Notes: generated by a model from the letters alone, not told the origin. 64,000 bases of DNA from Parcubacteria group bacterium Gr01-1014_8 (GCA_007376385.1 VMGC01000004.1:1-64000), one strand, 5' to 3'; shown: positions 3,490-20,790, numbered from the stretch's first letter. Translations and numbers: made by a program.

Positions 3490-5049
3490 ATGTCCATCAC
3501 AATTGCTGCATCGTTGTTACAAGCCGCACTCATGTTGCTGACTCTCGTTCAGTCGACGCCTGATCTGCCGCAATCCGCGAGGGATAATGCCATACAAGTT
3601 ACCGAACACGCGATTCGGGAGGCGACCATCGCGCTTACCCGGCTTGGTGCCGCACGGCCAGCCACTGCTGGAGCGGCAACGCTTTCTATAACGAACATGG
3701 CTCTTGCTACACCGCCGGGGATGACCATGACCCTGCAATACAGCAACATGCCGCGGGCAGGAGTCCGCATCATTAATACCGCTGGCGTTGTCGTATGGAC
3801 CCAGGAATTGACCCAGACGGGCGCAGGCACGTTGAATATGCCGCTCCCTATCACGTTGCCGGAGGGGAGCTACACGGCGCAAGCGTTTGGAACAGACAAC
3901 TCTATATACACGACGAGTCAGCCGTATTATTTTGCCGGTAACGTGCCAGCAAGCATAGCGTATAACAATCAATCGCAGTCGTCTGTCGTTGCGGTCTACA
4001 CAAACCTTCCGGCTGGAGTCCACGTCAATCTCCTCTGGAAAAATCCTCAAGGGCAATGGCTCCAAGTAGGAGAGTCCAACATTGCTCCAAACGGAGGCAG
4101 TGGTACGGTCAGCGTGCAAATTACCTTGGTTGACCCTCTTACCGGAAAAGTTCCCCTTGGTTCCTATAAATTTCGAATTCAAAAAACGAGCGACATAACC
4201 TGGTCTCTCGAAAGTGCGCCTTTTGCCTTCATCGGCGGACCGAGGACGGGACTCTGGTGTGATATCACATCGAATAAAGCGAATGTAGTTGCAGGAGAAC
4301 AGTTCATTCTGACATGGACCGGAAGCCAGGAGATCAAGGAACCGGTCATGCATCGGCATATAACCGGAGGCGGCAAGGTACTCGTCTCGCAAAACGGTTC
4401 GATGAGTATGACAGCAGAAAGCGGACCTAAAATAATCTGGTTCACGATTGGTAGTGGCGGACTGACAGGTACGCCCAACGAGATCTGCTCCGTAAAGATG
4501 AATATTGTTTCCTCAACAATGGCTGCTCCGACAGTTTCCATGGAAGCATCTCCTTCAACGCTTGGCGCGGCCCAAACTGCCATGCTGACCTGGAGTTCAA
4601 CCTACGCGAATCGCTGCACTCTTCAATACGATGGTAAAGAAGATATCGTCTCATTGAGCGGCTCAAGGACGGTGACGCCGACACATACAACGGCGTACCG
4701 TTTCGTCTGCACGAATGATCCTGGCTCTGGGAGAGACGGACCTTCTGCAGAAACAACGGCAGTGATAACCATTGCCGCGCCGACGTGTACGCTCACCACA
4801 GACAAAAGTTCGTATAAACTCGGCGAAGCCATCGTGCTTCAGTGGGCAAGCCAAAATGCGACATACGCATCGTTCTGGCAGGACACATCCGGCAGGGATC
4901 ATCTGCTGCTCCCTGGCGACAAATTATCGGCAAGCGGCATGCATACCATCACGGCGAGTGTCCTTGGCAATCCGCCAGTCACTCTCCTTATCTACAATTA
5001 CTTCAACAATAACGCCTGCAGTGTAGTCATCCCGGTCACTCAAAACTAG
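3490..5049 (+). CDS. secreted hypothetical protein (519 aa), beta-rich, Ig-like-repeat appearance
   Basis: N-terminal signal peptide MSITIAASLLQAALMLLTLVQS; Thr/Ser/Gly-rich repeated segments; no catalytic motif recognized. Confidence 0.5.
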   Translation: MSITIAASLLQAALMLLTLVQSTPDLPQSARDNAIQVTEHAIREATIALTRLGAARPATAGAATLSITNMALATPPGMTMTLQYSNMPRAGVRIINTAGVVVWTQELTQTGAGTLNMPLPITLPEGSYTAQAFGTDNSIYTTSQPYYFAGNVPASIAYNNQSQSSVVAVYTNLPAGVHVNLLWKNPQGQWLQVGESNIAPNGGSGTVSVQITLVDPLTGKVPLGSYKFRIQKTSDITWSLESAPFAFIGGPRTGLWCDITSNKANVVAGEQFILTWTGSQEIKEPVMHRHITGGGKVLVSQNGSMSMTAESGPKIIWFTIGSGGLTGTPNEICSVKMNIVSSTMAAPTVSMEASPSTLGAAQTAMLTWSSTYANRCTLQYDGKEDIVSLSGSRTVTPTHTTAYRFVCTNDPGSGRDGPSAETTAVITIAAPTCTLTTDKSSYKLGEAIVLQWASQNATYASFWQDTSGRDHLLLPGDKLSASGMHTITASVLGNPPVTLLIYNYFNNNACSVVIPVTQN

Positions 5050-7341: not shown

Positions 7342-9039
7342 TTATTCGGTTGCAGGTGCAGGTACGTTTGCTGGTGGCGGCGGAGAAGGTTCCGGTTCGG
7401 GTGGTGGTTCTACCGGCGTCTCTGGAGGTGGAGGTGGGACGTCTACAGGGGCGGGAGGTTCTGTTGCAGGAGCCGTCTCTGGCGTGACTTCTGGCACATC
7501 AGACGGCACCGGCGCGGATCCGTCATGTGCAGCATCCGATTGATCTGATTCTTCGGGGGAAGTCGAATCCGTCGCAGGATCGCTATCCTCCGCTGGTGCG
7601 TCTGGTTCGACTGTAGCGTCCAGCTCCGTCTGCTCGGACGTGTCGGCAGAATCCTCGTCTTCGGGGAGCGTGGAATCCTCATCTCTCGGTACATCGGCAG
7701 TTTCTTCTGGAGACGAATTTTCGGCTGGCTCTGCTGCACCGTTCTCTTCCGTGGCGGATCCCGACGCAGTCGCGGCAGGCGCTGCAGACGCGCTGCCTCC
7801 GCCACTGTTCGTTGGCGGTGCCGCATCAGTCGTTTCAGTCGTCGTTGCTTGTTCCGCTTCACTCTCCTCATCCGCGGCGCCCAATACTTCTGGCTGCGGC
7901 TCGCCGAAGGCTTCGGCGGAGGCGGCTTCTGGTTCCGGGTCAGGAATGTTGGGTGTGCCTGGCGTCGGTATCGGGTCCACCCACGTGCCTGTTCCATCTG
8001 GAATACGCGCGTACGACTTGTTTGGCGCGATCGCAGTCCCTGGGCAACTGCCCGCCGATGGAGTTGATGTTGCGTTTGTGCTTCCAGGTGTCAACTCATT
8101 CTCGCAAAAGTCACTGGGGTTGTCGTACGTGTGCGAGTCGACGAGGACGTTCGTATCGGTATAGAGAAAGATGCTATCACCGGTGTTATTGAGAACTGGC
8201 TTGTTGAAGTACACCACAAGCCATCCGTGTGCAGGGATGGTTGTCGTCGCGGGCTGTGTGTTTGTTGATCCTATAACTGCCTGCGTATTTCCAGCCCCGC
8301 CACTTTCATCCGCAAGATACCAATCGACAATATCTATAGCAACGTCGCCCTTGTTGTACAGTTCAACCCATTCGCCGTCCGGCATGTTTGAAGCATCATT
8401 TCCGAAGTCATATCCGTTCGCAGTATCGTCCGGATTCGGCAGGAATTCGTTCAGCACAATATCAAAGACGCTCGCGGTTGCTTGATAGGTGATGACAAGA
8501 TGCACGCGCTCTTCGTCTGTGTAGCCGGTGTTCTCTGGCGCTCCTTCATACCATCCGCGGTAAATGAGGTCAGCGTTGCAGATATCGCTGTTCGCGAAGC
8601 CCGTCGTCGTTGCAAGCGTGAGTCCGACGTTCCATACGCCCGTCGTTGTGGTTGGGGTCGTGTTAAGAGCTATGAGCCCTCCGGAATAAACAAATGGGGA
8701 AGTTGTCGCAACGACATTAAGTGCATTGCATAGCGCTGTTACTCCGCCTGTTTGTTCTGCAGTCACTCGATACTTTGTGGTGAAGCTCCCGGCTTCCGGC
8801 GTCATGACAGGAATGATGAGGGGAGTCGTTGTCGCTGTTATCGTTCGCGCGTATGTGTCATCTGCGACAAGAAAATCAAGAAGTCCCGCGCCAAAGAAGT
8901 TTCCGATCGAAATTTCTGTATCTCGCAAATATGAAAGCGTCTGTCCAATACCACCGTATGACATTCCGAAAGAAGATGCAAAGAGCATACATGAAAGCGC
9001 AAGAACTGTTGCCTTATGCGCAAAGGATGGCTTCCACAT
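7342..9039 (-). CDS. secreted lamin-tail-domain (LTD) protein with long acidic Pro/Ser/Thr/Glu-rich C-terminal tail
   Basis: Signal peptide MWKPSFAHKATVLALSCMLFASS at the internal Met (start 9039). LTD signature region DGEWVELYNKGDVAIDIVDWYLAD...GWLVVYF. The last ~200 aa are low-complexity (PEPEP, PPPPPETPVEPPPEPEPSPPPP). Confidence 0.7.
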   Translation of the reverse strand: MWKPSFAHKATVLALSCMLFASSFGMSYGGIGQTLSYLRDTEISIGNFFGAGLLDFLVADDTYARTITATTTPLIIPVMTPEAGSFTTKYRVTAEQTGGVTALCNALNVVATTSPFVYSGGLIALNTTPTTTTGVWNVGLTLATTTGFANSDICNADLIYRGWYEGAPENTGYTDEERVHLVITYQATASVFDIVLNEFLPNPDDTANGYDFGNDASNMPDGEWVELYNKGDVAIDIVDWYLADESGGAGNTQAVIGSTNTQPATTTIPAHGWLVVYFNKPVLNNTGDSIFLYTDTNVLVDSHTYDNPSDFCENELTPGSTNATSTPSAGSCPGTAIAPNKSYARIPDGTGTWVDPIPTPGTPNIPDPEPEAASAEAFGEPQPEVLGAADEESEAEQATTTETTDAAPPTNSGGGSASAAPAATASGSATEENGAAEPAENSSPEETADVPRDEDSTLPEDEDSADTSEQTELDATVEPDAPAEDSDPATDSTSPEESDQSDAAHDGSAPVPSDVPEVTPETAPATEPPAPVDVPPPPPETPVEPPPEPEPSPPPPANVPAPATE

Positions 9040-9155
9040 TTTTACTTTTTGTACCGGTTTGCCGAGAGCAGTAGGAAGCGCCAAGACGTGTCTCGACAAT
9101 GGAAACTTCTCGACGGTGCCGTCTACTGTCGGTATCCGTATATAGGTCATGTCGC

Positions 9156-9722
9156 TCATGGTTGTCGTAGGTCGAGCGTCGGAGTCGAACGGTTTGGCGG
9201 CGTGCCGGGATCCTTTCGTCTGCGAAGTGCAGTGACCTCGCGGCCGATGCGTATCACTTCGTCAACGATAATGATGGCAGCAGGAATTGCTATCATCAGC
9301 GTGAATCCGAGCGGTTTCTTTGCGAAATCAAGCACATATCCCGCATAGGGGATAGAGAACAGAACGCGTCCCTCGACATCCTGCGCAGCAATACGCACGC
9401 CATCCGCTTCCTCGTTCGCGTCGCCTTTGGTTTTATAAAACACTTGACTGCCCTCTGTTTGTATCTCGACAATTCGGTGCGTTGTAGGTATCTGCGCGCC
9501 CGTGCCTTCGCCGAACGTAATAACATCGCCAACGGCGTATGTTGATTGCGGTTTGAGGACGACGACGGAACCGGTCAATATCGCAGGCTCCATCGAACCG
9601 CTTTTAACTATCTTTATCTGCACGTTCCCCGGGATTGGGAGAAGTGATGCAAGGAAAAGGCCAGCAACCCCCAAGAGAAGGAGGACGAATACTGCATAGA
9701 AAAGTTTGCTAACGATCGTCAT
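9156..9722 (-). CDS. sipW: signal peptidase I, archaeal/eukaryal type (S26B, SipW-like)
   Basis: N-terminal TM anchor then SGSMEP catalytic-Ser box and GDVITF; 188 aa; SipW architecture. Directly downstream of four SipW-cognate-signal proteins. Confidence 0.75.
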   Translation of the reverse strand: MTIVSKLFYAVFVLLLLGVAGLFLASLLPIPGNVQIKIVKSGSMEPAILTGSVVVLKPQSTYAVGDVITFGEGTGAQIPTTHRIVEIQTEGSQVFYKTKGDANEEADGVRIAAQDVEGRVLFSIPYAGYVLDFAKKPLGFTLMIAIPAAIIIVDEVIRIGREVTALRRRKDPGTPPNRSTPTLDLRQP

Positions 9723-9725
9723 AGT

Positions 9726-10760
9726 TTATCGGAGTCGATTGAAAAGGTCTCTCAATAGATCACGAATGTCGTCACTGTCGCCGTTGATATTCGTTGTATT
9801 TGTCGTGTTGGTGGTCGTTGCGCTCGAAGACGCGTTGCCAGTCGTTACTGTGCCTCCCTGACCGGGCAGGCCGCCTCCTGCCGTATTGCCTCCTGTGTTT
9901 GAGCTCGATGTAGTTATCGAATTGACCGTGCCATTGTTTACGATGGTGATGTTAATGGGACCATTACAGCTTGGGCACGGCGGCTCAACTGGAGGATAGC
10001 CGCCGCAGATGAACTTTGGCTTAAGTTGCGCCATCTCTGCGCGGATAGAAACATCCACGCTAAAGGAATCTGTCTGCGCTTCGTTGCCGAGTGCGTTAGC
10101 GTCGCAGTTGAAGGAGCCGTTTTGTTGAACTGTCAGGTCTCCTGCGCACCAGCACATGCCGACATATCGCTTGGTATTGAGACGGCACATACTGCCGCGC
10201 GAATCCGCTATGGCGTACGTCGTTGATGCAAACACATACGAAGCCGCCTGCGTCGATGTGCCGAATATCGGCTTCTCGTTTGGCGGTTCATATTTACCAT
10301 CGCCATCATCCATCCAGCCAAAAAATTCTGTTCCATCCGCTAATTCTGCTCCTGCCGCGCCATCTTCATGTCCTTCCGGTTCGTTTACACCGTTCTCGTT
10401 TTCCTGAAGATTTTTGAAATCGAGACACATCCAGGCATTTGCATTCTTTACATGCATTGAGATCACGTTACAGCCAAAGTCGCCAGGCTTAATGTCGTCA
10501 AAATTGAAGAATTTATCTGCACCGGGGACGAGATTTTTCAGCGCCCACGTTGCAGAGGGGACAAGTACGCCGTTATAGAACGCTTGGCTGTCTATCTTTA
10601 AGTCTATTCCGTGCGTCGCGAAAGTTACGCCCGGCTCATTTCCGCGTACGACGTAAGCGACACCAACTACGGCAAACACCCCCGCCACGATGAGGGTGCG
10701 TGCCATTATCTTAGTTAGTGCCGCTGTTTGTGTCATACCATGCATTTCGTTCAACCACAC
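9726..10760 (-). CDS. TasA/camelysin-like SipW-dependent secreted protein, paralog 4 (divergent N-terminus)
   Basis: Shares the family motifs GIDLKID near the N-terminus and the C-terminal CDANALGNEAQTDSF...RAEMAQ...FICG with the three upstream paralogs. The start is uncertain; alternative Met codons are at 10736 and 10706. Confidence 0.6.
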   Translation of the reverse strand: MWLNEMHGMTQTAALTKIMARTLIVAGVFAVVGVAYVVRGNEPGVTFATHGIDLKIDSQAFYNGVLVPSATWALKNLVPGADKFFNFDDIKPGDFGCNVISMHVKNANAWMCLDFKNLQENENGVNEPEGHEDGAAGAELADGTEFFGWMDDGDGKYEPPNEKPIFGTSTQAASYVFASTTYAIADSRGSMCRLNTKRYVGMCWCAGDLTVQQNGSFNCDANALGNEAQTDSFSVDVSIRAEMAQLKPKFICGGYPPVEPPCPSCNGPINITIVNNGTVNSITTSSSNTGGNTAGGGLPGQGGTVTTGNASSSATTTNTTNTTNINGDSDDIRDLLRDLFNRLR

Positions 10761-10775
10761 TCCAGAGCGAATTTA

Positions 10776-10830
10776 TTCGCCCAGCTCCAGTTTCGTGCGC
10801 ACGTAACTGTCGAAACTGGAGCTGGGCAGG
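10776..10830. promoter_or_regulatory. intercistronic stem-loop (16-bp perfect stem, 15-nt loop) between paralog 3 and paralog 4
   Basis: cccagctccagtttcg ... cgaaactggagctggg are exact reverse complements; no obvious U-tract on the minus strand. Candidate transcript-processing or attenuation element. Confidence 0.5.
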
Positions 10831-10836
10831 CCGAAG

Positions 10837-12057
10837 TTAATCTTGGATGCCGTCACCAACCTCGTTGTTCAGAATGTTGCAGGTGAGATTGTCGCTCGGG
10901 TTCAAGGTGAATGGGGATGACGTACCGACGTTGACGCTGTTCGTGCAAGCGCCGCTGAATGTCACGGTGAAAGTCTTTCCGCCGACATTACCTGTTACCT
11001 GCTCATACGCGGTATACGAACCGCTCGGCAGGCCTGGCACCGGCACTTCGTCGGTCACTACCTGGTCGCCACCCGGGCCGACTATGTGCAGCGTGAAGTC
11101 GGCAACTTCGATACCTACTGTTGAAACGAGGAGTGCCTTGTTGACGGTAAGAGTACCGGTTGTCACCTCCGGTGGATTGCAGAGGAAGCCTTCATTGTGT
11201 CGCGCTTGTTCTGCTCTGAATGCAAGCGTGAGTTCAGCCATGTCAGTTTGCGTCTCGTTGCCAAGCGCGGTTCCGTCACAAAGTACGCTGTTAGGTCGTA
11301 CTTGCGGGCCTGTATCAGCGTCATCAGGCAAGCCAGGGGTCGTCAAGGTTCCAAAGCACCACGCTTTCGCGATATAGACGGTCTCATTTGCGGGAAGCGG
11401 CGAGTCTCCTCCCCACGCGTTTCCATTTGAGTCGGCAAGGGTGATGGAGAAGGCGCCGGTCGTCGTAGCAAGGTCAGTGAGTGTCTTTACGCCTCCCGAG
11501 AGGCCTTGTTCGCCAGTTTCGTACACGTTGTCACCGTCGTCAGCCCACCAGAAGAATTGGAGTGCATCTGCAAGCTCACCGTCCCACGCATCAAGCGGGT
11601 TTTCCTGCGCATCCACCTGGCCTTCAGGCTCAGTGGTCGAGACATCGTCATCCGATGTAAGCGTCAAGTCCATACATGCCCACGCATCGTTCTGAACGTG
11701 AATAGAGATGGTGTCCTCGCCCTCATCATCCGGCTTCAAGTCAGTGAAGTTGAAAAAGAGAAGACCGTCGTCGAGGTCCGAAAGAGGGAAGCTCGTGTCG
11801 CACGGCGAGCCTGGGAGTGGGAACGGAAACTGCCCCTGCCAATAGAATCCCGGCGTCGTCGTCGCTTGCTCGCCAAGGAATGTGCAGCGATTCCCATTGT
11901 AATAACTGTCATTATCAATCTTCAAATCAATCGCTCCCGCAGCAAACGTGTTGCCAGTGGACGTCTCTGTGTCGGAAAAGAACGCGCCGGTCATTCCCGC
12001 TCCTATCGCAGCCGCCGCTCCCGCGACAACGATGAGCCCAAATATGATTCGTGGCAT
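10837..12057 (-). CDS. TasA/camelysin-like SipW-dependent secreted protein, paralog 3 (406 aa)
   Basis: N-terminus MPRIIFGLIVVAGAAAAIGAGMTGAFFSDTETSTGNTFAAGAIDLKID matches the SipW-cognate class signal region (AFFSDTETSxGN). Conserved C-terminal CDGTALGNETQTD...FRAEQARHN...FLC. Confidence 0.7.
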   Translation of the reverse strand: MPRIIFGLIVVAGAAAAIGAGMTGAFFSDTETSTGNTFAAGAIDLKIDNDSYYNGNRCTFLGEQATTTPGFYWQGQFPFPLPGSPCDTSFPLSDLDDGLLFFNFTDLKPDDEGEDTISIHVQNDAWACMDLTLTSDDDVSTTEPEGQVDAQENPLDAWDGELADALQFFWWADDGDNVYETGEQGLSGGVKTLTDLATTTGAFSITLADSNGNAWGGDSPLPANETVYIAKAWCFGTLTTPGLPDDADTGPQVRPNSVLCDGTALGNETQTDMAELTLAFRAEQARHNEGFLCNPPEVTTGTLTVNKALLVSTVGIEVADFTLHIVGPGGDQVVTDEVPVPGLPSGSYTAYEQVTGNVGGKTFTVTFSGACTNSVNVGTSSPFTLNPSDNLTCNILNNEVGDGIQD

Positions 12058-12220
12058 ATTGTTTATTAATTAATCGCCAGTTTCCCACTGGTTAATAATG
12101 TTGCTAATAACGTAAAGAACTTTGCTGTGCCGTGCCCCGTGAGATGGCTTCGCCTATCTCATGGGGTTTCCCGTACAGCCTCCCGAGCACGACTTTCATG
12201 CTCGGAGTGGCTAGAAAGGA

Positions 12221-13513
12221 CTAAGTTGGATCTGGCGGCGGCGCATCTCCCGGATCGCACAGAAAATTCGGATTATGCCGCACTTGTTCCGCGCGGAACA
12301 CGATGTCGGCGGTCAACGAATCCGTCTGCGCTTCGTTACCCATCGTGCTGCCATCGCACGTGATAACGCCCGTCAGACCGTCAACAATTTGCACTCCTGC
12401 GCACCACGCAGAGCCGATGTACTCTGTCGTACTCGCAACGAGTGCGCCATTTCCTGTCGTAGAGTCGTGAAGCGGGAGCGTAATGCCGTTCCCGAAGAGT
12501 CCTGATGAGAGAGACGTCTCCGTCGGCGGTTCATACACGCCGTCTCCATCGTCATTCCACAGGAAGAGATTGAGATAGTTGCCAAGCTCTCCGAGCGGGC
12601 TGTTGTTCAAATCCACGAGACTCGCGGCGTTGCATTCCGCGTCCGGTACGAGCGCGTCTGATTCCGGTTCGGTGCAGGTGTTGTCGTCGTTCTCCACATT
12701 CGTGATGTCCATGCACGCCCAGCCGTCGTTGGTGCCGACATGCAAACTGAATACATCGCGCCCGTCGTCGCCCGGCTTTACGTCGGTGAAATTCCAGAAC
12801 GGCTCGCCCGTGAGATCAATGGGGTCAACAAAGATTCCATCGCCATCAACGACGAGTTTGAAGAGAAGCCCCGCGGGATTAAACGTTGGGTCGCCTCCGC
12901 CTCCACCAGGGTTCGTTACAACTGCGGTAAGTGTATTTGGGCCCTGCACGAAATCCGCCGCTGGTACGACGTACACGTCTTCTGCAGCAGAGGTGAAATT
13001 ACTTGCCGCAAATTCGCTACCGATCGCATTGCCGTTCAGAGAAACAGAATAGAAGTTATCCGCGGCAATGTAGAGCGTCGCGCCGACGATCGGCCCATTC
13101 ACGTTGAACGTCCGAGTGAACGTATTTGTCTGCGTAACGCTCGCGTCCGATGGGCCATCAGCAGCCCAGATCCAGAACGAGCCATCGTTCGCGCCATCAT
13201 TTGGTGGTCCCGCAACATGCCCGCCATCCAAATCCGCAGTCCACGACGGATGAATGAACGTAACCGCAACGGCATTTCCCGCGCCGTCGTCTCCTGTGAA
13301 TGTCGTTAGTGTGTCGCTCACGATGGTAAAGTCCTCGCCGTTTGGTTCGCCGTTGTACGTTGAAAGGGAATGGTCGATCTTGAGGTCAATCGAGCCGGCG
13401 GTGAAGATATTTCCCGCCGAAGTTTCGGTGTCAGAAAAGAAAGCACCCGTTGCTCCCGCTACTGCTCCGCCGATGAAGATGATCATACCGAGTCCCAGTA
13501 ATATTCGTCGCAT
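12221..13513 (-). CDS. TasA/camelysin-like SipW-dependent secreted protein, paralog 2 (430 aa)
   Basis: MRRILLGLGMIIFIGGAVAGATGAFFSDTETSAGNIFTAGSIDLKID; C-terminal CDGSTMGNEAQTD...FRAEQVRHN...FLC. Confidence 0.7.
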   Translation of the reverse strand: MRRILLGLGMIIFIGGAVAGATGAFFSDTETSAGNIFTAGSIDLKIDHSLSTYNGEPNGEDFTIVSDTLTTFTGDDGAGNAVAVTFIHPSWTADLDGGHVAGPPNDGANDGSFWIWAADGPSDASVTQTNTFTRTFNVNGPIVGATLYIAADNFYSVSLNGNAIGSEFAASNFTSAAEDVYVVPAADFVQGPNTLTAVVTNPGGGGGDPTFNPAGLLFKLVVDGDGIFVDPIDLTGEPFWNFTDVKPGDDGRDVFSLHVGTNDGWACMDITNVENDDNTCTEPESDALVPDAECNAASLVDLNNSPLGELGNYLNLFLWNDDGDGVYEPPTETSLSSGLFGNGITLPLHDSTTGNGALVASTTEYIGSAWCAGVQIVDGLTGVITCDGSTMGNEAQTDSLTADIVFRAEQVRHNPNFLCDPGDAPPPDPT

Positions 13514-13696
13514 AGTATCTATGCGCCGGTTTCCCTATATTAGTTAGCTGTTCTAAAAACGTTGCTGTTCACTGAACAGCCCCTCCAGTCGCAGGTTCGC
13601 CAAGGCGACTCCTTGAGATCCCCAAGGTGTCGCCTTGTGCATCGGCGAGCTGCGGCTGGATTCGGCTATCCACGAACCATCTAATTTCGTAGAGAA

Positions 13697-14596
13697 CTAG
13701 GAAGCTGGTACAGGTGTTACCCAAGATGGAACGTAGTCTGTCTCACACTGGAAGTCAGCGTTATTTCGAGATTGCTCCGCATAGAACTCGAGATCGCCAA
13801 TGACTCTGTCAGTTTGAGCTGCGTTATCAACTCCTGTTCCGTCGCAGTTCCAACCGGTTCCGAGGGTAGTCGGATTACCCGTGTTGACGCCATCTTGGAC
13901 GAGGGCATCGGGCGTCATTGCACCGAAGCACCAAGCCTTACCGATGTAGTTCGTTGATCCGCCAGGAACCCCGGCGCTACCGAAGGGACCTCCGGAAGCG
14001 TCAGAAAGAGCGATTTGACCTTGTGAGTCCAATCCGCTGATTGGACCGCTCAAAAAGACGGTTTCTGGTGATCCGCCTGTGCCTGCGACTGGCTCGAAGA
14101 CGTTGTCTCCGTCGTCCACCCAGAACGCGAAGTTGACTTGCTCGTCCAACTCACCGAGACCTGGACCCGGCTCTGCACAATTTGCGTCATCATCACCTTC
14201 CGGTTCCGTACAGGTATTATCTTCGTCTGTTGTTACTTGCGCCGCTGCGCACAGCCAAGCGTTGTTGCTACCGACGTGAATGGAGATTGTGTCCTCACCA
14301 AGGTCTCCCGGTTTCAGATCAATGAAATCGAAGAACTTCTCAATAGTTAGGTCAGTTAAATCCCACGAGGTGGCAGCCCACGCGACCATATTGTCGGGGC
14401 CTGATCCTTGTGTAGAAGTAGCGGTGATGTAGCTGTCATTATCGATCTGTAAATCAATATCTCCCGCCGCAAACGTGTTGCCAGTAGATGTTTCTGTGTC
14501 GTTGAAAAAAGCGCCCGTGGCTCCCGCCGCGACCGCCCCCACAAACACGATCATCCCCAAACTTATGAGAATTCTTTGTACTGATAGTAATTGCAT
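13697..14596 (-). CDS. TasA/camelysin-like SipW-dependent secreted protein, paralog 1 (299 aa; first gene of the cluster)
   Basis: MQLLSVQRILISLGMIVFVGAVAAGATGAFFNDTETSTGNTFAAGDIDLQID; C-terminal CDGTGVDNAAQTD...FYAEQSRNN...FQC. Confidence 0.7.
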   Translation of the reverse strand: MQLLSVQRILISLGMIVFVGAVAAGATGAFFNDTETSTGNTFAAGDIDLQIDNDSYITATSTQGSGPDNMVAWAATSWDLTDLTIEKFFDFIDLKPGDLGEDTISIHVGSNNAWLCAAAQVTTDEDNTCTEPEGDDDANCAEPGPGLGELDEQVNFAFWVDDGDNVFEPVAGTGGSPETVFLSGPISGLDSQGQIALSDASGGPFGSAGVPGGSTNYIGKAWCFGAMTPDALVQDGVNTGNPTTLGTGWNCDGTGVDNAAQTDRVIGDLEFYAEQSRNNADFQCETDYVPSWVTPVPAS

Positions 14597-14624
14597 ATTA
14601 TTTTTTTATTATTGATTTTTTATA

Positions 14625-14680
14625 TTTGGAGTTACGAACTCCAAACGTGCCAGATATTTGGACTTACGAACTCCAAACGT
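14625..14680. promoter_or_regulatory. two tandem palindromic boxes (24 nt each, 32-nt period) upstream of the TasA-like cluster
   Basis: tttggaGttacgaactccaaacgt (14625-14648) and tttggaCttacgaactccaaacgt (14657-14680); each has tttggag/ctccaaa inverted arms. They lie 30-85 nt upstream of the minus-strand start at 14596, beside an AT-rich stretch. Confidence 0.45.
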
Positions 14681-14825
14681 CTGTTTGGTAATTTCTTGCG
14701 TCGTTCGGAAGATCGACCACTCCGATCTCGCGATTGTTTGTACTGCTTCCTTCAGTCCACAAGCACCATGTTACCCAAGGACCTTCTCGTTTCCCGAAAG
14801 AAGAACGAAGCAGTAATTTGAATCG

Positions 14826-14945
14826 CGAGGACCTATCTGCGTGTTACCGCACAGGCAGACGCCTTTTTAACGGGGGTTACCCGGCTGGCTCCTCGGCTCG
14901 GAAATGAAAATGAATACACTTTCATTTCGCTCGCTCTATGTCGCC
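14826..14945 (+). repeat. copy A of a ~120-nt repeated structured element (candidate ncRNA)
   Basis: Shares tctgcgtg..cgcacaggcagac, a ttttaa box, gctcggaaatga.aa and tttcatttcgctcgct with copy B at 40611-40735. Contains hairpin gaaatgaaa/tttcatttc. Confidence 0.45.
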
Positions 14946-15243
14946 AGACAAGCGCAACGCGCTGGGCGAGTTAGGTCCGATGCGACAAGCGCATCAGACC
15001 TGCACGACCAACAGACAAACTGTAACGCCTTCATGATGTGGGTCTCATGAAGAAAAAATGGGTTTTCCGTGGATAACTCTTGTATAAGTGTGTGAATTGG
15101 CTCTGTATAACGATAGGGAAATCGTGTGGACAAACCTGTGGATTTATTTTCCATTGCAAACAATGCGCAGGGCGCTACGCGCCCTCTGCCCCTGTCAAGT
15201 CTTTTCTCTTTTCAGTATACCGTGGCACATCTGTCAACCGCCG

Positions 15244-15279
15244 ATACCATAATGGTGCCGACCGGCACCATTATGGTAT
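15244..15279. promoter_or_regulatory. perfect 17+2+17 bp palindrome
   Basis: ataccataatggtgccg-ac-cggcaccattatggtat. Its core tggtgccgaccggcac recurs at 15981-15996 on the other side of the PaaX-like gene. Confidence 0.45.
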
Positions 15280-15377
15280 GTTGCATATTTCACAAAAATA
15301 ACAAAAAAAGATGAAACAAGAAGAAAAAAAGAGGAGCAAGAAAGAAGCAGAGGGGATGGCAACCGAGATGACAACGA

Positions 15378-15959
15378 TTACGAGAGAGGCAATTTGAAAT
15401 GCACGCGGAATTTTCTGTCGTTCTCAATACTTTGAGCGATAAGATACACTACGCTTGGACCCAGCTTCAGCTCCGTGCGAATAAAGGATATGAATTCTTC
15501 GCATGGGTGGGGGAATATCCATACGCTTTCCTGCAATTTCACAAAACCGATTTTCTGCAGCATTTTTCGCAGTTGTACCCTTTGGCGGCGTCTCTTTTCC
15601 CAAATATCGAATATGACCACGCGCCACAAACCATCCCATTTTCGCGGGATTTGAGGTTGGATCGCTTCGGCCTGCTGGAGGCGTCCCATCTCTCGTTTTC
15701 CGCGCTCGGTAAGGGCGAATTTCCCATCGACTTTCCGCACAAAACCCTTGTCTTCTAGGCGCCCTAAGGCCTGTCGCATCCTGTGAGAAGCATTGCGCCG
15801 TCGGTTAAAATCAGGGTCGATGTGCTTCAACAATCTGGCTGCATTCGGTGCCATCAGGACGAACGTGAGTGCTGCCGCCCCAAATAGGGTCATCAGCATT
15901 GCATCCTGTATCTTTAGGCGCCTGTTATGTGCTTTCGCTTTTATTTCATGCTGTCCCAT
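15378..15959 (-). CDS. PaaX-like winged-helix transcriptional regulator
   Basis: N-terminal wHTH-like region plus a C-terminal WDGLWRVVIFDIWEKRRRQRVQLRKMLQKIGFVKLQESVWIFP segment resembling the PaaX C-terminal domain (W-G-W...R..LR..L...GF..L...VW..P). Confidence 0.5.
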   Translation of the reverse strand: MGQHEIKAKAHNRRLKIQDAMLMTLFGAAALTFVLMAPNAARLLKHIDPDFNRRRNASHRMRQALGRLEDKGFVRKVDGKFALTERGKREMGRLQQAEAIQPQIPRKWDGLWRVVIFDIWEKRRRQRVQLRKMLQKIGFVKLQESVWIFPHPCEEFISFIRTELKLGPSVVYLIAQSIENDRKFRVHFKLPLS

Positions 15960-15973
15960 ATCGAACTCAATTG

Positions 15974-16007
15974 TACCTTAGTGGTGCCGACCGGCACACG
16001 TAAGGTA
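15974..16007. promoter_or_regulatory. imperfect palindrome related to the 15244-15279 palindrome, in the divergent promoter region
   Basis: tacctta-gtggtgccgaccggcacacg-taaggta has outer 7-bp perfect arms and the shared core ggtgccgaccggcac. It lies between the PaaX-like start (15959) and the 16108 gene. Confidence 0.4.
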
Positions 16008-16107
16008 TGAGGAATATAGGATACTTACTATATGTATTGAGTGAAAAAACAAAGACACGCAATAAACAATAAACGCTGCCACGCTCAGGCTTCTTGGCGG
16101 ATAGTTC

Positions 16108-17463
16108 GTGCGTGATACGATTTCATATATGTCAGAGCCGAAGAAACCCGCAGCGTTAATACAGTCGCAATCAGGCCGACTGAATTGGGAGAGGATCGAA
16201 TCAGACGAGAATGTGCGCGCAGTTCTTATCCAAACATTCTCGCTCGGCGGAAATACGGATGACGCGGTGAATTTTCTGTCAAAAATCGGATGTACTGTGC
16301 CGGTCGAAAAATTGAAAGGGCGTTTGGATGTCGTGGGTGGCAAGCCAAAATATATCACTGCGTTACGAGCTACTCCGCCTTCGCCGGATGTAATGGAGCG
16401 GCGTCGGAACGAAGTTCAGACGCACTTGCTTCTTCTAGACCACGTGCGCTCCAGAGTGTGGTGTTTCGTCACGAATACGAGGGCTGCCGCGGTATACATG
16501 CTCAAAAAGGGCGAAATTGCGGGGGATATTGCGCGCGTCGTCTCGCGACAATTACAAATGACGCCGGAGATAGATGAGATCACGATAATACATCTGACGA
16601 AACGCGCGGGGGGCCCGGATGCGTTTGCGGCGCGCCTCCAACAAGGGAACCCTCCATTTACCGAGCCCCTCTCCGATGCAGAGCTCGCGCAGGGCAAAAA
16701 AGACGTGGAATATTATCTCCCAATAGCCAGGTCCAGAATGCGTGAAAGAGCCGAGTGGATGAAAACTGATGAGACTCGCGCATTCGTTCTTGCACTCGTC
16801 GCGGACCGCAATGTATCCGTGTTCATGATCGAATGGGCGCTGAAGAAAAAATTTGGGATGGAGCTCGGCTACAGCGGTCTATGGGACCGGATACAAAATG
16901 AGAAGGGCGATATTCTCGAAGAGAAGCGTGCGAACTTCGTCGAAGCACGCAAAGTCGGACTTGATGACGAAGAATTGAACGAACAGATGAGGGGACTCGC
17001 CGCCGAGGCTCAAAATGAATATTTCGGATATTTGCAGAACATGCATCGAAGAAAAGGCGAGCTCGCAAATATCTCAATAAACCGGAAGAAGGATATTGAT
17101 GCGCGGTCATCGTTTGAGCCGCTCCAGGCACTTGCAGAAGCGATCCGCATTCGCTCGACCCAGCTGGGGGCAACGGAGCCCCCGGCGAGCGTCACACTAC
17201 GTTATACAAATACGCCCGGAGATAAAAGGGCGGTTCCGACTCTATTTGTCGGCGTAAATGAGACTGACCCGGATGTTTCGCGGCTTTTACATTCGTACGT
17301 GCGTAAAGAGCTGCTTGAAATGCAGGCGGGATATGAAGGCATATTGCAAAGGGCGCTGACGTCAAATAAGGGCGAACCTTTTGGGCGAGCGATGCTCCGG
17401 GGCCCGAATCAGAATGATTTTGAAGTATTTTCGTTTAGCTCGAACGGACAGAACGGCCGCTGA
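16108..17463 (+). CDS. hypothetical protein (451 aa), cytoplasmic
   Basis: Long ORF with no recognized catalytic motif; divergent from the PaaX-like regulator. Confidence 0.45.
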   Translation: MRDTISYMSEPKKPAALIQSQSGRLNWERIESDENVRAVLIQTFSLGGNTDDAVNFLSKIGCTVPVEKLKGRLDVVGGKPKYITALRATPPSPDVMERRRNEVQTHLLLLDHVRSRVWCFVTNTRAAAVYMLKKGEIAGDIARVVSRQLQMTPEIDEITIIHLTKRAGGPDAFAARLQQGNPPFTEPLSDAELAQGKKDVEYYLPIARSRMRERAEWMKTDETRAFVLALVADRNVSVFMIEWALKKKFGMELGYSGLWDRIQNEKGDILEEKRANFVEARKVGLDDEELNEQMRGLAAEAQNEYFGYLQNMHRRKGELANISINRKKDIDARSSFEPLQALAEAIRIRSTQLGATEPPASVTLRYTNTPGDKRAVPTLFVGVNETDPDVSRLLHSYVRKELLEMQAGYEGILQRALTSNKGEPFGRAMLRGPNQNDFEVFSFSSNGQNGR

Positions 17464-17484: not shown

Positions 17485-18234
17485 ATGCCATTGAACCACG
17501 TTAGGCCGGATAATTCGGAAGGGAGAGATATTAAAGGGGCGCGCGTTGGAACGCTGACGCTGGGTGAGATAGCAGGAATTAAAGACAAAGCGGTCGACGA
17601 GCGGCTGGCGTCGTATGGACTCGACCCGGCAAAAATCGCCGCGGCTCCGGCAAGCTCGTACGCCTCCGACGAGGCACGAACATTGATGATAAAGAGGTTC
17701 GCGATCGCGCGTCTCGAAGGGCATCGGGAAGAAGAAATACAAGATTCCTTGCGCGTTGAAGTTCCTATGGGCTGGAAAGGAAGGGAAACCGGTTTTCCGA
17801 CCTATCATCTGCGCTCACTGTTTTCTGAAGACGTGAAGCACAAGATCAAAGAACACGAGGAGTTTTGCATTTCCGCTGCTGCTTTAAAGGGCGACGAGCA
17901 GATCCGGGAACTCATGGCAGTCATAAAAAAGATAACGTTCTCACACGGAAAAGCGGGGCTCGCGGCGGAACAATTCTTTAAAAGTATGGTTCGATTGCCT
18001 CCTTACGAGGGCCCCAAAGTGCATGCGAAAGAGGTCATAGACCTGCATAGTTTTCTTGTTGCGTACATACTTGCAATGGGTTCTCTGACGAATGTGAATA
18101 TTGCGTCGAAGCTAAATGCGCATAAGCCGCTCTCGGCAACGAATGTGAACAATGCGTTCCATCGGTACCTTTCAGATGAAGCGTGGGGGCGTCTTCCGAC
18201 GCGAGTCGGCGGGGACTATACGAGCGAGCAGTGA
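17485..18234 (+). CDS. hypothetical protein (249 aa)
   Basis: ORF 22 nt downstream of the previous gene, likely co-transcribed; no recognized motif. Confidence 0.45.
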   Translation: MPLNHVRPDNSEGRDIKGARVGTLTLGEIAGIKDKAVDERLASYGLDPAKIAAAPASSYASDEARTLMIKRFAIARLEGHREEEIQDSLRVEVPMGWKGRETGFPTYHLRSLFSEDVKHKIKEHEEFCISAAALKGDEQIRELMAVIKKITFSHGKAGLAAEQFFKSMVRLPPYEGPKVHAKEVIDLHSFLVAYILAMGSLTNVNIASKLNAHKPLSATNVNNAFHRYLSDEAWGRLPTRVGGDYTSEQ

Positions 18235-18579: not shown

Positions 18580-20790
18580 ATGTTCGCATCCTTCGGACGA
18601 TTCCGACTATCCTCCGAAAGCTGGCAACTCTATTTATTGTACGCGGGCACGATCTTTCTAAGTGCGTTCCTACTTTTTCAAATTCAGCCGATAGCAGGGA
18701 AGCACATGCTGCCGTGGTTCGGCGGCTCATCGAGTGTGTGGGCGACAAGCCTGCTATTTTTTACCGGCATGCTTTTCCTAGGCTACTTGTACGTATATTT
18801 TCTCCAGCGATATCACGATGCGCTTCAAGCGAAGATACACCTCGTCGTTCTTATCGTATCTGCGGCGCTCGTTCTTCTTGCACTTCTCGTGTGGCATTCC
18901 GTATATCCGCCGCTTCAGTGGACGATAGGGAACGAACTCACCCCGTGGCTTGAGGTTCTTGCGGCTCTGTTCATCAGCGTCGGCATCCCGTATTTTCTGC
19001 TGGCAACGACGGGGCCTCTACTCCAGTATTGGTATGGAATATCGGCAGGCAAAGAACCGTATAAGCTCTACGCGCTTTCGAACATCGGTTCCTTGCTCGC
19101 GCTTGCGAGCTATCCGTTTGCCGTTGAACCGCACATGGTTCTGGCCGCGCAGAAGAGCGTCTGGATACTTGCGTTTTTGGTGTACGTCGCGCTTCTCTTT
19201 ATGGTATGTCGGCAATTTCTGAAAACGAAGGCAAGCCAGCCGCAGGAATCAGAGCCCGTGAGCCACGCATCCGTGCCAATGGAAGACAGAGTGATTTGGG
19301 TAACGCTTGCTGCGCTCCCATCGCTCATGCTTGTTGCGACGACGACGCAAATAACGCAGGTCATTGCTCCCATTCCTCTCCTATGGCTGCTGCCGCTGTG
19401 CGTGTATCTCATCACGTTCATCATTGCGTTCTGGGGTTTGGGAAGGGGATTCATCACCTGGTTTTTGCTCCTTGGCACCGCAGCGGCGACCTATTCATTC
19501 CTGGATTCGGGCTATCACGAGACTGCGTGGCGTGTCATCTCGGATATATTGCTTCTCTTTTTCATAGGACTTTTTTGCCATGGCCAGTTGTACGCCAGGC
19601 GTCCCGAGACAAAACATTCGCCGCTTTTCTATTTGAATATTTCGCTCGGCGGCATGATAGGGGCGCTCCTTGCCAGTTTGGTTGCCCCGCTTTTCTTTCC
19701 TGACCTGTGGGAATTTCCGCTCGGCATTTTGCTCTGCGCGCTGTTCGCCATCGCTCTTATTCCTAGGAGCATCACGGCTCGCGTGCATCCCGTGTACATA
19801 ACGATTGCGCGCGTCATGCTGCTTATTGCTATCTGTTCAGGCGTGGTGAGCTACGTAAATGACGAAAACGGAGTCGAAGACATCGTGCGATTCCGCAACT
19901 TTTACGGCACAGCAAAAGTGAACCAAGTGGGACAAATACGTACGCTTTTACACGGCGGCACAATTCACGGCATGCAATTCCTAGATCCTGAATTGGAATT
20001 TACGCCTTCGACGTACTACAGCGCGCAAAGCGGCGTCGCAAGAGCCATCATGGACCAATATTTGGCGAATAGAGATAAGACGCTCAACATTGGTATCATC
20101 GGGCTGGGAACGGGCGCAATTTCTACGTATTGCGGAAGCGGCGACAAATATGTGTTTTACGAGATAGACCCGCAGATAGTGAACATCGCCCACACGCAAT
20201 TTACGTATCTTACGCGCTGTCCGGGAGTAGAGATTCGGCTCGGCGATGCGAGAATTGTCTTGGAAGAGGAGCGCCGAGCGGGGGTGAAAAATAATTTCGA
20301 CGTGCTGGTGATGGACGCATTCAATGACGACACAATTCCTGTCCACCTTGTAACAAGAAATGCCCTGCAGACATTCCTTACGCACTTGCGCAGCGACGAA
20401 AGTATCCTCGCCGTTCACACGTCAAACAGGTATCTCGACCTTGCGCCAGCAATTATTAGTACTGCGGAAGACTTGGGGCTGTATTGGATGATAGTTGAGA
20501 ATCGCGGTGAGGAGAACGAAATTGCCTCGCCGTCGGAATGGGTGCTTCTTACGAGGAGCGAGAAAACATACAGGTCGGAAACATTCGAGAATCTTGACCT
20601 GTGGTACCCGGAAAAACGCGTGCCGGTCTGGACTGACGACTACAGCGACATGCTTGCCATAATCTCGATTCCGTTCGATTTCAACGACCTTGTTGATTCA
20701 TTCAGAGAAAAACTCGGCATAGAGAAAGAGGAAGTTGTTGAAGAAACTGTCCCCGAAGAAGAGGTCACGGAAGAAGTAACGGAAGAATAG
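18580..20790 (+). CDS. fused polytopic membrane domain / spermidine-synthase-like aminopropyltransferase (736 aa)
   Basis: About 10 predicted TM helices in the first 400 aa. C-terminal LHGGTIHGMQF, IGIIGLGTGAISTY, YEIDPQIVNIA, DVLVMDAFNDDTIPVHL match the spermidine synthase (SpeE) fold motifs. Confidence 0.7.
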   Translation: MFASFGRFRLSSESWQLYLLYAGTIFLSAFLLFQIQPIAGKHMLPWFGGSSSVWATSLLFFTGMLFLGYLYVYFLQRYHDALQAKIHLVVLIVSAALVLLALLVWHSVYPPLQWTIGNELTPWLEVLAALFISVGIPYFLLATTGPLLQYWYGISAGKEPYKLYALSNIGSLLALASYPFAVEPHMVLAAQKSVWILAFLVYVALLFMVCRQFLKTKASQPQESEPVSHASVPMEDRVIWVTLAALPSLMLVATTTQITQVIAPIPLLWLLPLCVYLITFIIAFWGLGRGFITWFLLLGTAAATYSFLDSGYHETAWRVISDILLLFFIGLFCHGQLYARRPETKHSPLFYLNISLGGMIGALLASLVAPLFFPDLWEFPLGILLCALFAIALIPRSITARVHPVYITIARVMLLIAICSGVVSYVNDENGVEDIVRFRNFYGTAKVNQVGQIRTLLHGGTIHGMQFLDPELEFTPSTYYSAQSGVARAIMDQYLANRDKTLNIGIIGLGTGAISTYCGSGDKYVFYEIDPQIVNIAHTQFTYLTRCPGVEIRLGDARIVLEEERRAGVKNNFDVLVMDAFNDDTIPVHLVTRNALQTFLTHLRSDESILAVHTSNRYLDLAPAIISTAEDLGLYWMIVENRGEENEIASPSEWVLLTRSEKTYRSETFENLDLWYPEKRVPVWTDDYSDMLAIISIPFDFNDLVDSFREKLGIEKEEVVEETVPEEEVTEEVTEE

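Follow-up and report, generated by a model that had tools for sequence, protein, structure and literature searches.

Twin 36–38 bp palindromes around a shortened PaaX-type regulator gene in Patescibacteria suggest a one-gene autorepressor unit

Background

The lambda cI gene, which lies between OL and OR, and lacI, with the operator O3 at its 3′ end, are repressor genes bracketed by their own operators and make use of DNA looping. In the lac case O3 is also reported to act as a roadblock that truncates lacI transcripts, and both systems control large outward-facing operons. Here we examine a gene for a PaaX-type regulator that lies between two related palindromes in DNA of an uncultured groundwater bacterium, recorded as Parcubacteria group bacterium Gr01-1014_8 (GCA_007376385.1, VMGC01000004.1:1-64000); the whole stretch of 64,000 nt that was analysed is referred to as the window. 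In E. coli, the PaaX operator is a 39-bp widely spaced palindrome, TGATTC-N27-GAATCA, and PaaX represses its own promoter by steric hindrance, blocking RNA polymerase (PMC9493321).

Patescibacteria (Candidate Phyla Radiation, CPR) account for a sizeable part of bacterial diversity and have tiny genomes with few regulators, almost none of which has been characterised. A full-text literature search found no description of the present family, of its twin palindromes, or of PaaX-like proteins in CPR bacteria. We consider it probable that the gene and its palindromes form a self-contained one-gene autorepressor cassette with twin PaaX-type operators, conserved across Patescibacteria.

A regulator gene between two related palindromes

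The elements of the locus, counted from the first nucleotide of the window, are as follows.

15244–15279, no strand: downstream palindrome (O_D), 36 bp, perfect, ATACCATAATGGTGCCG-AC-CGGCACCATTATGGTAT, putative second operator
15280–15377, minus strand: 3′ untranslated spacer, 98 nt, pyrimidine-rich, from the stop codon to O_D
15378–15959, minus strand: regulator gene, 193 aa, winged helix plus Cas2-like PaaX_M domain
15970–15975, minus strand: candidate −10 hexamer TACAAT, proposed by analogy with relatives
15973–16008, no strand: upstream palindrome (O_U), 36 bp, imperfect, putative promoter-proximal operator

An earlier reading of this DNA, made from the sequence only, had reported a perfect palindrome with 17-nt arms at 15244–15279 and a 193-aa regulator gene reaching 15959, and both were recovered here, the palindrome by an inverted-repeat search with arms of 17 + 17 nt that are 100% complementary and 2 nt apart. 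The same reading had placed a second copy of the 16-nt core of O_D, TGGTGCCGACCGGCAC, at 15981–15996, inside an imperfect palindrome; the copy is present within O_U, with its coordinates corrected to 15982–15997, and these are the only two exact copies in the window. With up to 3 mismatches allowed, the 16-mer gave 4 matches against 0.57 expected. On the gene strand O_U reads ATACCTTACGTGTGCCG-GT-CGGCACCACTAAGGTAC and ends 13 nt 5′ of the ATG. The inverted-repeat search delimited it as 15974–16007, with 16-nt arms that are 81% complementary, and setting it in register with O_D gave 15973–16008. In the paired-palindrome test its arms were complementary at 13 of 17 positions and 29 of its 36 positions were identical to O_D, while the two sites share 80% identity across 44 nt.

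Both window palindromes have outer arms of the form TACCWTA and the core CCGACCGG. The half-site TACCWTARTGGTGCCG, searched with up to 3 mismatches, matched exactly the four arms of O_U and O_D (4 matches, 0.82 expected), a number reached in 0 of 100 shuffles, and the outer-arm pattern matched O_U and O_D alone in the 64 kb. Chance as the source of the repeated palindrome is excluded. The rarity of the palindrome rests on these motif searches; a whole-window inverted-repeat scan, which does not list 15244–15279, was not used for it.

Twin palindromes are paired within loci and vary among lineages

More than 542 relatives of the regulator were matched, and 84 loci of Patescibacteria, 4 from genomes and 80 from metagenomes, made up the comparison set. 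The first four loci were inspected by eye, and each homologue had a palindrome of ~36 bp just upstream and another just downstream, with a sequence that depended on the lineage; a default-seed palindrome search had missed the imperfect sites in two of them (L003 and L004), which were found by direct reading. In an automatic joint search requiring at least 70% identity between the copies, paired, lineage-specific palindromes of 34–38 bp were present on both sides of the gene in 72 of the 84 loci. Several of the 12 remaining 'weak' loci carry related copies that were lost to the gapless test (L010, L013, L070, L072 and L063/L084). Twin palindromes were also present in all of seven additional close relatives that were retrieved by exact protein look-up and had enough flanking sequence. 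In the closest relative (L087, 61% identity), TTACCTTA..GTGCGGTCGCAC..TAAGGTAA stands on both sides of the gene. The upstream sites of the relatives are homologous to O_U in position and sequence type, and the distance from centre to centre of the two sites ranges from 602 to 729 bp in the family, the window having the longest (729 bp).

Flank-to-flank comparison gave a best 30-mer identity with a median of 26/30 within a locus versus 19/30 between loci, and an identity of 23/30 was reached by 64 of 70 regulator genes versus 4 of 247 control genes from the same loci. The site sequence differs among lineages yet stays paired within each locus, and the order palindrome, gene, palindrome is the sole constant feature of the loci. 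That the gene encodes an autoregulated repressor with two related operators, as first suggested for the window, remains the best reading of these sequences, given the twin palindromes in 72 of 84 loci. In one locus (L074) two tandem copies of the upstream palindrome, 47 bp apart, were seen at 450–487 and 497–534, and a downstream copy was not detected.

Scanning 459 kb of related loci, each with its own palindrome, returned four genuine extra copies, none of them farther than 2.5 kb from the gene. In two cases (L023 and L050) the copy stands where gatB and a small MerR-like gene converge. The third (L041) is of the promoter type and precedes an adjacent ORFan, and it shares added upstream sequence with the regulator's own promoter copy. 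The fourth (L064) is part of a ~95-bp direct duplication (620–715 and 1778–1863) flanking a 1.06-kb insertion; the duplicated sequence comprises the end of an RNase J-like gene, the palindrome and the ATG, the insertion carries a 270-aa ORFan, and its left junction falls exactly after the ATG of the regulator.

These third copies near the gene in 4 loci are what could be said for a generic dispersed repeat, of the repetitive extragenic palindromic (REP) or miniature inverted-repeat transposable element (MITE) kind, that stands twice in the window by chance. We give this view next to no credence, as exactly two copies were found in 64 kb, both flanking the gene, the four extra copies in the 459 kb all keep close to the gene, and flanking repeats are missing at the control genes. 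The abundance of the core motif in other contexts, which would have spoken against an operator in the sequence-only reading, was not found in the 64 kb or in the 459 kb of related loci.

The encoded protein is a shortened PaaX relative

PF20803 (PaaX_M) was matched with 72.3 bits (cut-off 24, E 3.7e-20) at residues 106–180, and Pfam also gave weak winged-helix matches at residues 60–98 of the 193-aa protein. The winged helix is N-terminal, with the recognition helix at about residues 57–71 and the wing at 74–83, and 46 of 46 close relatives carry PF20803. On the other hand, the PaaX equivalog TIGR02277 (NCBIfam) scored 37.7 bits against a cut-off of 264.55, and Pfam found no PaaX_C effector domain; the protein stops ~13 residues past PaaX_M, and its length of 193 aa compares with 305–316 aa for PaaX. 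The label 'PaaX-like' given from sequence therefore holds for the PF20803 domain and does not extend to PaaX as an equivalog with its PaaX_C domain.

As for Cas2, TIGR01573 (cas2) scored 26.6 bits, marginally above its cut-off of 24.5, over residues 113–147 only (35 residues), and the same 35 residues were matched by the PADLOC Cas2 models, while Pfam Cas2 (PF09827) stayed below its cut-off (21.9 vs 23.8). A profile of 77 sequences searched against PDB found E. coli PaaX (8a39, E 8e-4) and Rv0674 (3kfw), and phmmer with the Cas2-like domain alone found only 3kfw. Structure prediction from the single sequence reached a predicted local distance difference test score (pLDDT) of 44; the alignment-based AlphaFold model reached 60.6, which is low confidence, and its fold matches were used at the domain level only. 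The modelled secondary structure runs helix-wing-helix and then beta-alpha-beta-beta-alpha-beta, and the Foldseek matches came in the order 3kfw, 8a39 and then many Cas2 structures. From the domain scores, the profile matches in PDB and the fold matches, the 193-aa protein is therefore a shortened PaaX relative, with a winged helix and a Cas2-like domain and without the C-terminal effector domain. It is not a true PaaX, and probably not a Cas2 of clustered regularly interspaced short palindromic repeats (CRISPR).

Asp118 is invariant in the family and stands in the Cas2-like beta1 strand, in the motif (V/I)FDI. Judging from the positions matched in the Cas2 models, it would be the counterpart of the catalytic Asp of Cas2. 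In NCBI the window protein is named a PaaX-type regulator and several of its relatives 'CRISPR-associated endonuclease Cas2'; both public names, 'PaaX' and 'Cas2', are unsupported by the present tests, and the database annotation calls for correction. The family comprises 1,544 clusters at 50% identity (E ≤ 1e-10), nearly all of its members are ~190 aa long and, so far as the data go, it is seen in Patescibacteria only. No paralogue of the regulator was found in the window or in any locus, so that the gene is single-copy throughout.

Anatomy of the palindromes

The repeat unit has a sharp boundary at ±19 nt from the centre, with copy-to-copy identity of 74–100% inside and ~30% outside. Complementarity of the arms depends on the distance from the centre, being 95–100% at positions 2–4, 42–66% at positions 5–10 and 72–100% at positions 11–19, and the site is thus bipartite, with a core of 6–8 bp and outer arms of 9 bp. 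Cores of the type CGRYCG occur in ~39 loci and CTATAG in ~20, with CATATG, CCATGG, CTCGAG and others being rarer. This bipartite, sharply bounded and lineage-varying profile appears to be that of a cognate protein-binding site rather than that of a hairpin. No localised signal beyond phylogeny emerged when protein columns were compared with core type (CTATAG vs CGRYCG) by mutual information, and no Rfam match was found at or near the sites.

In L063/L084, at 3966–4001 and 4582–4617, the outer arms of the two copies are common (TACATTAAT...ATAGATGTA) and the cores differ (CCTATAG vs GCCGACCG), which suggests that core and arms can evolve or be swapped independently.

The upstream copy and the promoter

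In 33 of 68 non-redundant loci there is no gap between the upstream palindrome and the ATG, or the two overlap, as in one example in which ..GGTATACTTTTGAT is followed directly by ATG. A −10-like TANNNT starting 5 or 6 nt to the right of the centre was present in 29 of 68 upstream copies versus 7 of 68 downstream copies, and the promoter element is thus asymmetric between the two. In the relatives this −10 box lies inside the upstream copy, 6–7 nt before the A of the start codon. Such a spacing is the geometry of a leaderless mRNA, and it implies that the putative operator would span the whole core promoter.

In the window, the candidate hexamer TACAAT overlaps the last 3 bp of O_U and lies 10 nt before the ATG, a position which, by analogy, would imply a leader of 2–4 nt and a near-leaderless mRNA. 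No Shine-Dalgarno motif is visible upstream of the window regulator's ATG. A strict sigma-70 scan did not call TACAAT, and TAAGGT, inside an arm of O_U, is an alternative −10 candidate. The overlap of the putative operator with the −10 box and transcription start of its own gene is in this way predicted from the DNA sequence.

The downstream copy

In 33 of 72 loci at most 10 nt separate the stop codon from the downstream copy, and this spacer has a family median of ~12 nt; the 98 nt of the window are the largest of the 72, and the closest relative has a shorter CT-rich equivalent of this spacer. O_D has no −10 box at the family position.

Its perfect arms would give a very stable hairpin (−33.6 kcal/mol, z −5.2), the downstream copy being the more stable of the two in 42 of 68 loci, and convergent genes enclose 37 of 59 downstream copies as well as the third copies of L023 and L050. 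Perhaps, then, the palindromes act as RNA or DNA hairpins, either bidirectional terminators or stabilising stem-loops, rather than as protein sites. We regard this as unlikely. A U-tail (6 or more T among the 10 nt that follow) is seen after the downstream copy in only 4 of 68 loci, and in 6 of 68 on the other strand; the hairpin of O_D is followed by CGGCGG, its tail, CGGCGGTTGA, is not a U-tract, and the terminator scan did not call O_D, which lacks the combination of GC-rich hairpin and U-tract of an intrinsic terminator. The mid-stem pairs poorly, at the positions 5–10 given above, and the upstream copy, situated at or ahead of the predicted transcription start, would not be transcribed with the gene. 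Moreover, a terminator needs neither a base-for-base match nor lineage co-change with a promoter-proximal site. Of the two roles first proposed for the downstream copy, that of a second operator is preferred to that of a terminator, since the U-tail is missing and the sequence, not just the pairing, is preserved between copies.

Neighbouring genes are not conserved

The 255 neighbouring proteins of the 84 loci fell into 176 clusters, the largest of which covers 7 loci, and the recurrent neighbours are housekeeping ones: TopA, DprA, Obg, GatB, GyrB, IF3, an RNase J-like protein, MYG1 and malic enzyme. Of the downstream neighbours, 37 are convergent and 22 co-directional with the regulator, and of the upstream neighbours 25 are divergent and 31 co-directional, orientations which are close to random. 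Annotated neighbours, taken from the window and from representatives of the recurrent clusters (SipW/TasA-like, ORFans and housekeeping), include no paa genes and no cas gene, and a search of the 64 kb for CRISPR-like tandem arrays found none.

In the window, two open reading frames (ORFs) lie beyond O_U:

16129–17463, divergent from the regulator: 444-aa ORF, an ORFan
17485–18234, next to the 444-aa ORF: 249-aa ORF

The sequence-only reading had seen the purpose of the regulator in the control of this divergent module. Indeed, O_U lies in a divergent intergenic region of 150–170 bp, in another lineage a divergent obg-gatB operon starts only 8–27 nt from the palindrome, and extra promoter-type copies can drive adjacent genes (L041), so that local co-option does occur. 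However, the 444-aa protein matched only itself among 5.8 billion proteins, and neither it nor the 249-aa protein belongs to a family in Pfam, NCBIfam or PADLOC. No homologue of either window ORF was found among the 255 neighbours at the 84 related loci, and the proposed co-occurrence of the two proteins with the regulator was thus seen at none of them. The divergent ORF of the nearest relative, L087, is unrelated to that of the window, a divergent upstream neighbour is present in only 25 of 56 loci, and searches of the 64 kb with the 16-mer, the half-site and the outer arms revealed no further site at the module's far end. It is rather unlikely that the regulator's main job is to control the 444/249-aa pair from O_U with autoregulation as a side effect; control of this ORFan pair may be a local co-option and is not the conserved function, and the purpose first assigned to the regulator is not supported on these grounds, together with the near-random orientation of the neighbours.

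On the other side of the regulator, the window and L087 have a TasA-like downstream gene in common (60% identity). Regulation of the downstream TasA-like operon was considered and rejected, the linkage being present in the closest relative only and gone at 49–54% regulator identity.

A mobile or recombining cassette, in which the palindromes would be recombination or cleavage sites (like the ends of insertion sequences (IS), or dif/attC-like) for the Cas2-like domain or a host recombinase, has to be weighed against these contexts as well. The contexts are very diverse (176 neighbour clusters), the gene takes up nearly all of the space between the repeats, and the repeats are mostly direct and, in L022, L034 and L041, identical at all 38 positions. 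The cores also resemble 6-bp crossover or restriction-type palindromes, Asp118 is invariant in the Cas2-like beta1 strand, and the insertion in L064 falls exactly at the end of a palindrome. But neither Pfam nor Foldseek found a recombinase or transposase fold in the 193-aa protein, no second copy of the gene occurs in the window or in any locus, target-site duplications are missing, with identity at background right outside ±19 nt, the orientation of the central AC/GT is inconsistent between the two copies, and the duplication in L064 is of ~95 bp and not of the 38-bp site. Within sub-lineages synteny is kept while the palindromes diverge, which indicates vertical inheritance. We hold such a cassette to be very unlikely. 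The explanations by a hairpin or terminator, by a cassette and by a generic repeat each fail specific tests.

Other observations at these loci

A replication origin was rejected as an explanation of the palindromes. The coding strand switches, and the cumulative GC skew has its minimum, at ~15.5–16 kb; the skew tracks the coding strand, DnaA boxes number 14 against 10 expected, and the related loci show no consistent strand switch. Two DnaA-box-like 9-mers with 1 mismatch each, 57 nt apart, lie at 15068–15133 and are weak evidence for an origin.

Between the unit and the TasA-like gene there is a non-coding stretch of ~650 nt (14597–15243), partly conserved in L087, whose conserved part includes the inverted pair CTCGCGAT...ATCGCGAG around TCGGGAAAC; this stretch may represent a structured 5′ leader belonging to the TasA-like gene. 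At 15165–15180, on the minus strand, a terminator-like hairpin was seen. Beyond it, 7342–14596 on the minus strand has the appearance of a CPR fibre or matrix locus of the TasA/camelysin-like kind, with a SipW-type signal peptidase (9156–9722) and three paralogous secreted proteins (10837–12057, 12221–13513 and 13697–14596); the latter two, the ones scanned with the model of the SipW-cognate signal peptide, match it, and the first shows the same N-terminal motif by eye. Further along, 18580–20790 encodes a 736-aa polytopic membrane protein with a C-terminal spermidine-synthase-like domain, matching a family of fused major facilitator superfamily and spermidine synthase proteins (MFS/SpdSyn).

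In Paceibacteria-type loci, a GC-rich and stem-rich non-coding region of ~300 nt, ending in a hairpin and T-run, sits between topA and the cassette (L003 3190–3460, L004 4450–4760 and L005 320–550); it gave no Rfam match and looks like an unannotated structured RNA. In L050, GatB (1051–2931, 626 aa) has a PD-(D/E)XK nuclease domain inserted between its catalytic and C-terminal domains.

A model of the autorepressor unit

We infer that the 193-aa protein binds the 36–38 bp bipartite palindrome, either as a single symmetric dimer or as a dimer of dimers. Its two winged helices would recognise the 9-bp outer arms, with centres ~30 bp apart, a geometry similar to that of the E. coli PaaX operator TGATTC-N27-GAATCA, and the Cas2-like dimer body would lie over the 6–8 bp core. 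Bound at O_U, the protein would cover the core promoter of the leaderless or near-leaderless mRNA and exclude RNA polymerase, giving negative autoregulation. O_D would be a second operator without a promoter, which most likely boosts the autorepression by looping out the gene of ~600–730 bp. Alternatively or in addition, it may serve as a protein roadblock against transcription that runs on beyond the gene or enters it from the convergent side, an idea that fits the downstream copy's often lying between convergent genes and beside the stop codon; where the site touches the stop codon, such a roadblock could also truncate the gene's own transcripts. If the downstream site were a roadblock or insulator, it would show how compact genomes with few canonical terminators delimit their transcription units.

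Several points weigh against this model of autorepression through twin operators. O_D of the window is 98 nt past the stop codon, and therefore a roadblock with truncated transcripts cannot apply there. The structure model is weak (pLDDT 60.6). The link between protein and site is one of co-occurrence and co-variation, which may also be expected from shared ancestry alone. In some loci the identity of the copies extends to non-palindromic positions, and direct orientation prevails (49 vs 16), which hints at gene conversion or duplication and not at each site being selected independently. It is biologically odd for a regulator to have almost no target but itself, which suggests that the protein has another role, and simple repression leaves the conserved restriction-site-like core and the invariant Asp118 unexplained.

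Because of the self-only target, the core, Asp118 and the identity of the copies with their direct orientation, we leave a very slim chance that the protein is a site-specific DNA-acting enzyme, which would sit as a dimer on the restriction-site-like core and use the invariant Cas2-type Asp, with the gene and its twin repeats forming an autonomous cassette. If true, this would be a minimal selfish or excisable CPR element, previously unrecognised, or else a free-standing unit of repeat plus Cas2-like gene that bears on the association of CRISPR repeats with Cas2.

Comparison with known systems

The probable autorepressor is best compared with PaaX of E. coli and Pseudomonas (8a39; PaaX-like Rv0674, 3kfw), with which it shares an N-terminal winged helix followed by the Cas2-like PaaX_M. 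The predicted site, here known from sequence, is likewise a long palindrome with spaced half-sites, of 36–38 bp against 39 bp in E. coli, with arm centres ~30 bp apart. PaaX, however, has ~310 aa and a PaaX_C domain for the phenylacetyl-CoA effector, whereas the present protein has 193 aa and no such domain, its equivalog score is far below the cut-off, and its annotated neighbours include no paa genes. The present unit also has an extra conserved central core, a putative second operator copy 3′ of the gene and a predicted leaderless promoter.

With Cas2 the protein shares the ferredoxin-like beta-alpha-beta-beta-alpha-beta fold, the beta1 strand (V/I)FDI with its invariant Asp, and a marginal match to TIGR01573. 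Here, on the other hand, this domain is fused to a winged helix, Pfam Cas2 remains below the cut-off, the 64 kb hold no CRISPR array, and the 36–38 bp repeats enclose the gene itself and not spacers.

Like lambda cI and lacI, the gene lies between two putative cognate operators several hundred bp apart, and the operator at its 3′ end is proposed to loop or roadblock and so to feed back on the expression of the repressor. It differs from them in that most loci are without a conserved regulated neighbour, in that each site is a single 38-bp bipartite palindrome, and in that the one-gene unit is conserved across a superphylum. IS elements and the cassettes of integrons or dif modules resemble it as a lone gene tightly bracketed by related repeats of 30–40 bp, and the upstream repeat overlaps the promoter as does the left inverted repeat (IRL) of many IS elements; unlike these, the present unit has no transposase or recombinase and no target-site duplication, is single-copy and keeps vertical synteny.

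The type of protein and the principle of autorepression are thus known, and what appears to be new is a one-gene unit with twin putative 38-bp bipartite operators, conserved across a superphylum. It offers a testable model of a one-gene autoregulatory unit that uses a 3′ operator, and its ~80 natural protein-site pairs are a resource for the recognition code of winged-helix, PaaX-type dimers.

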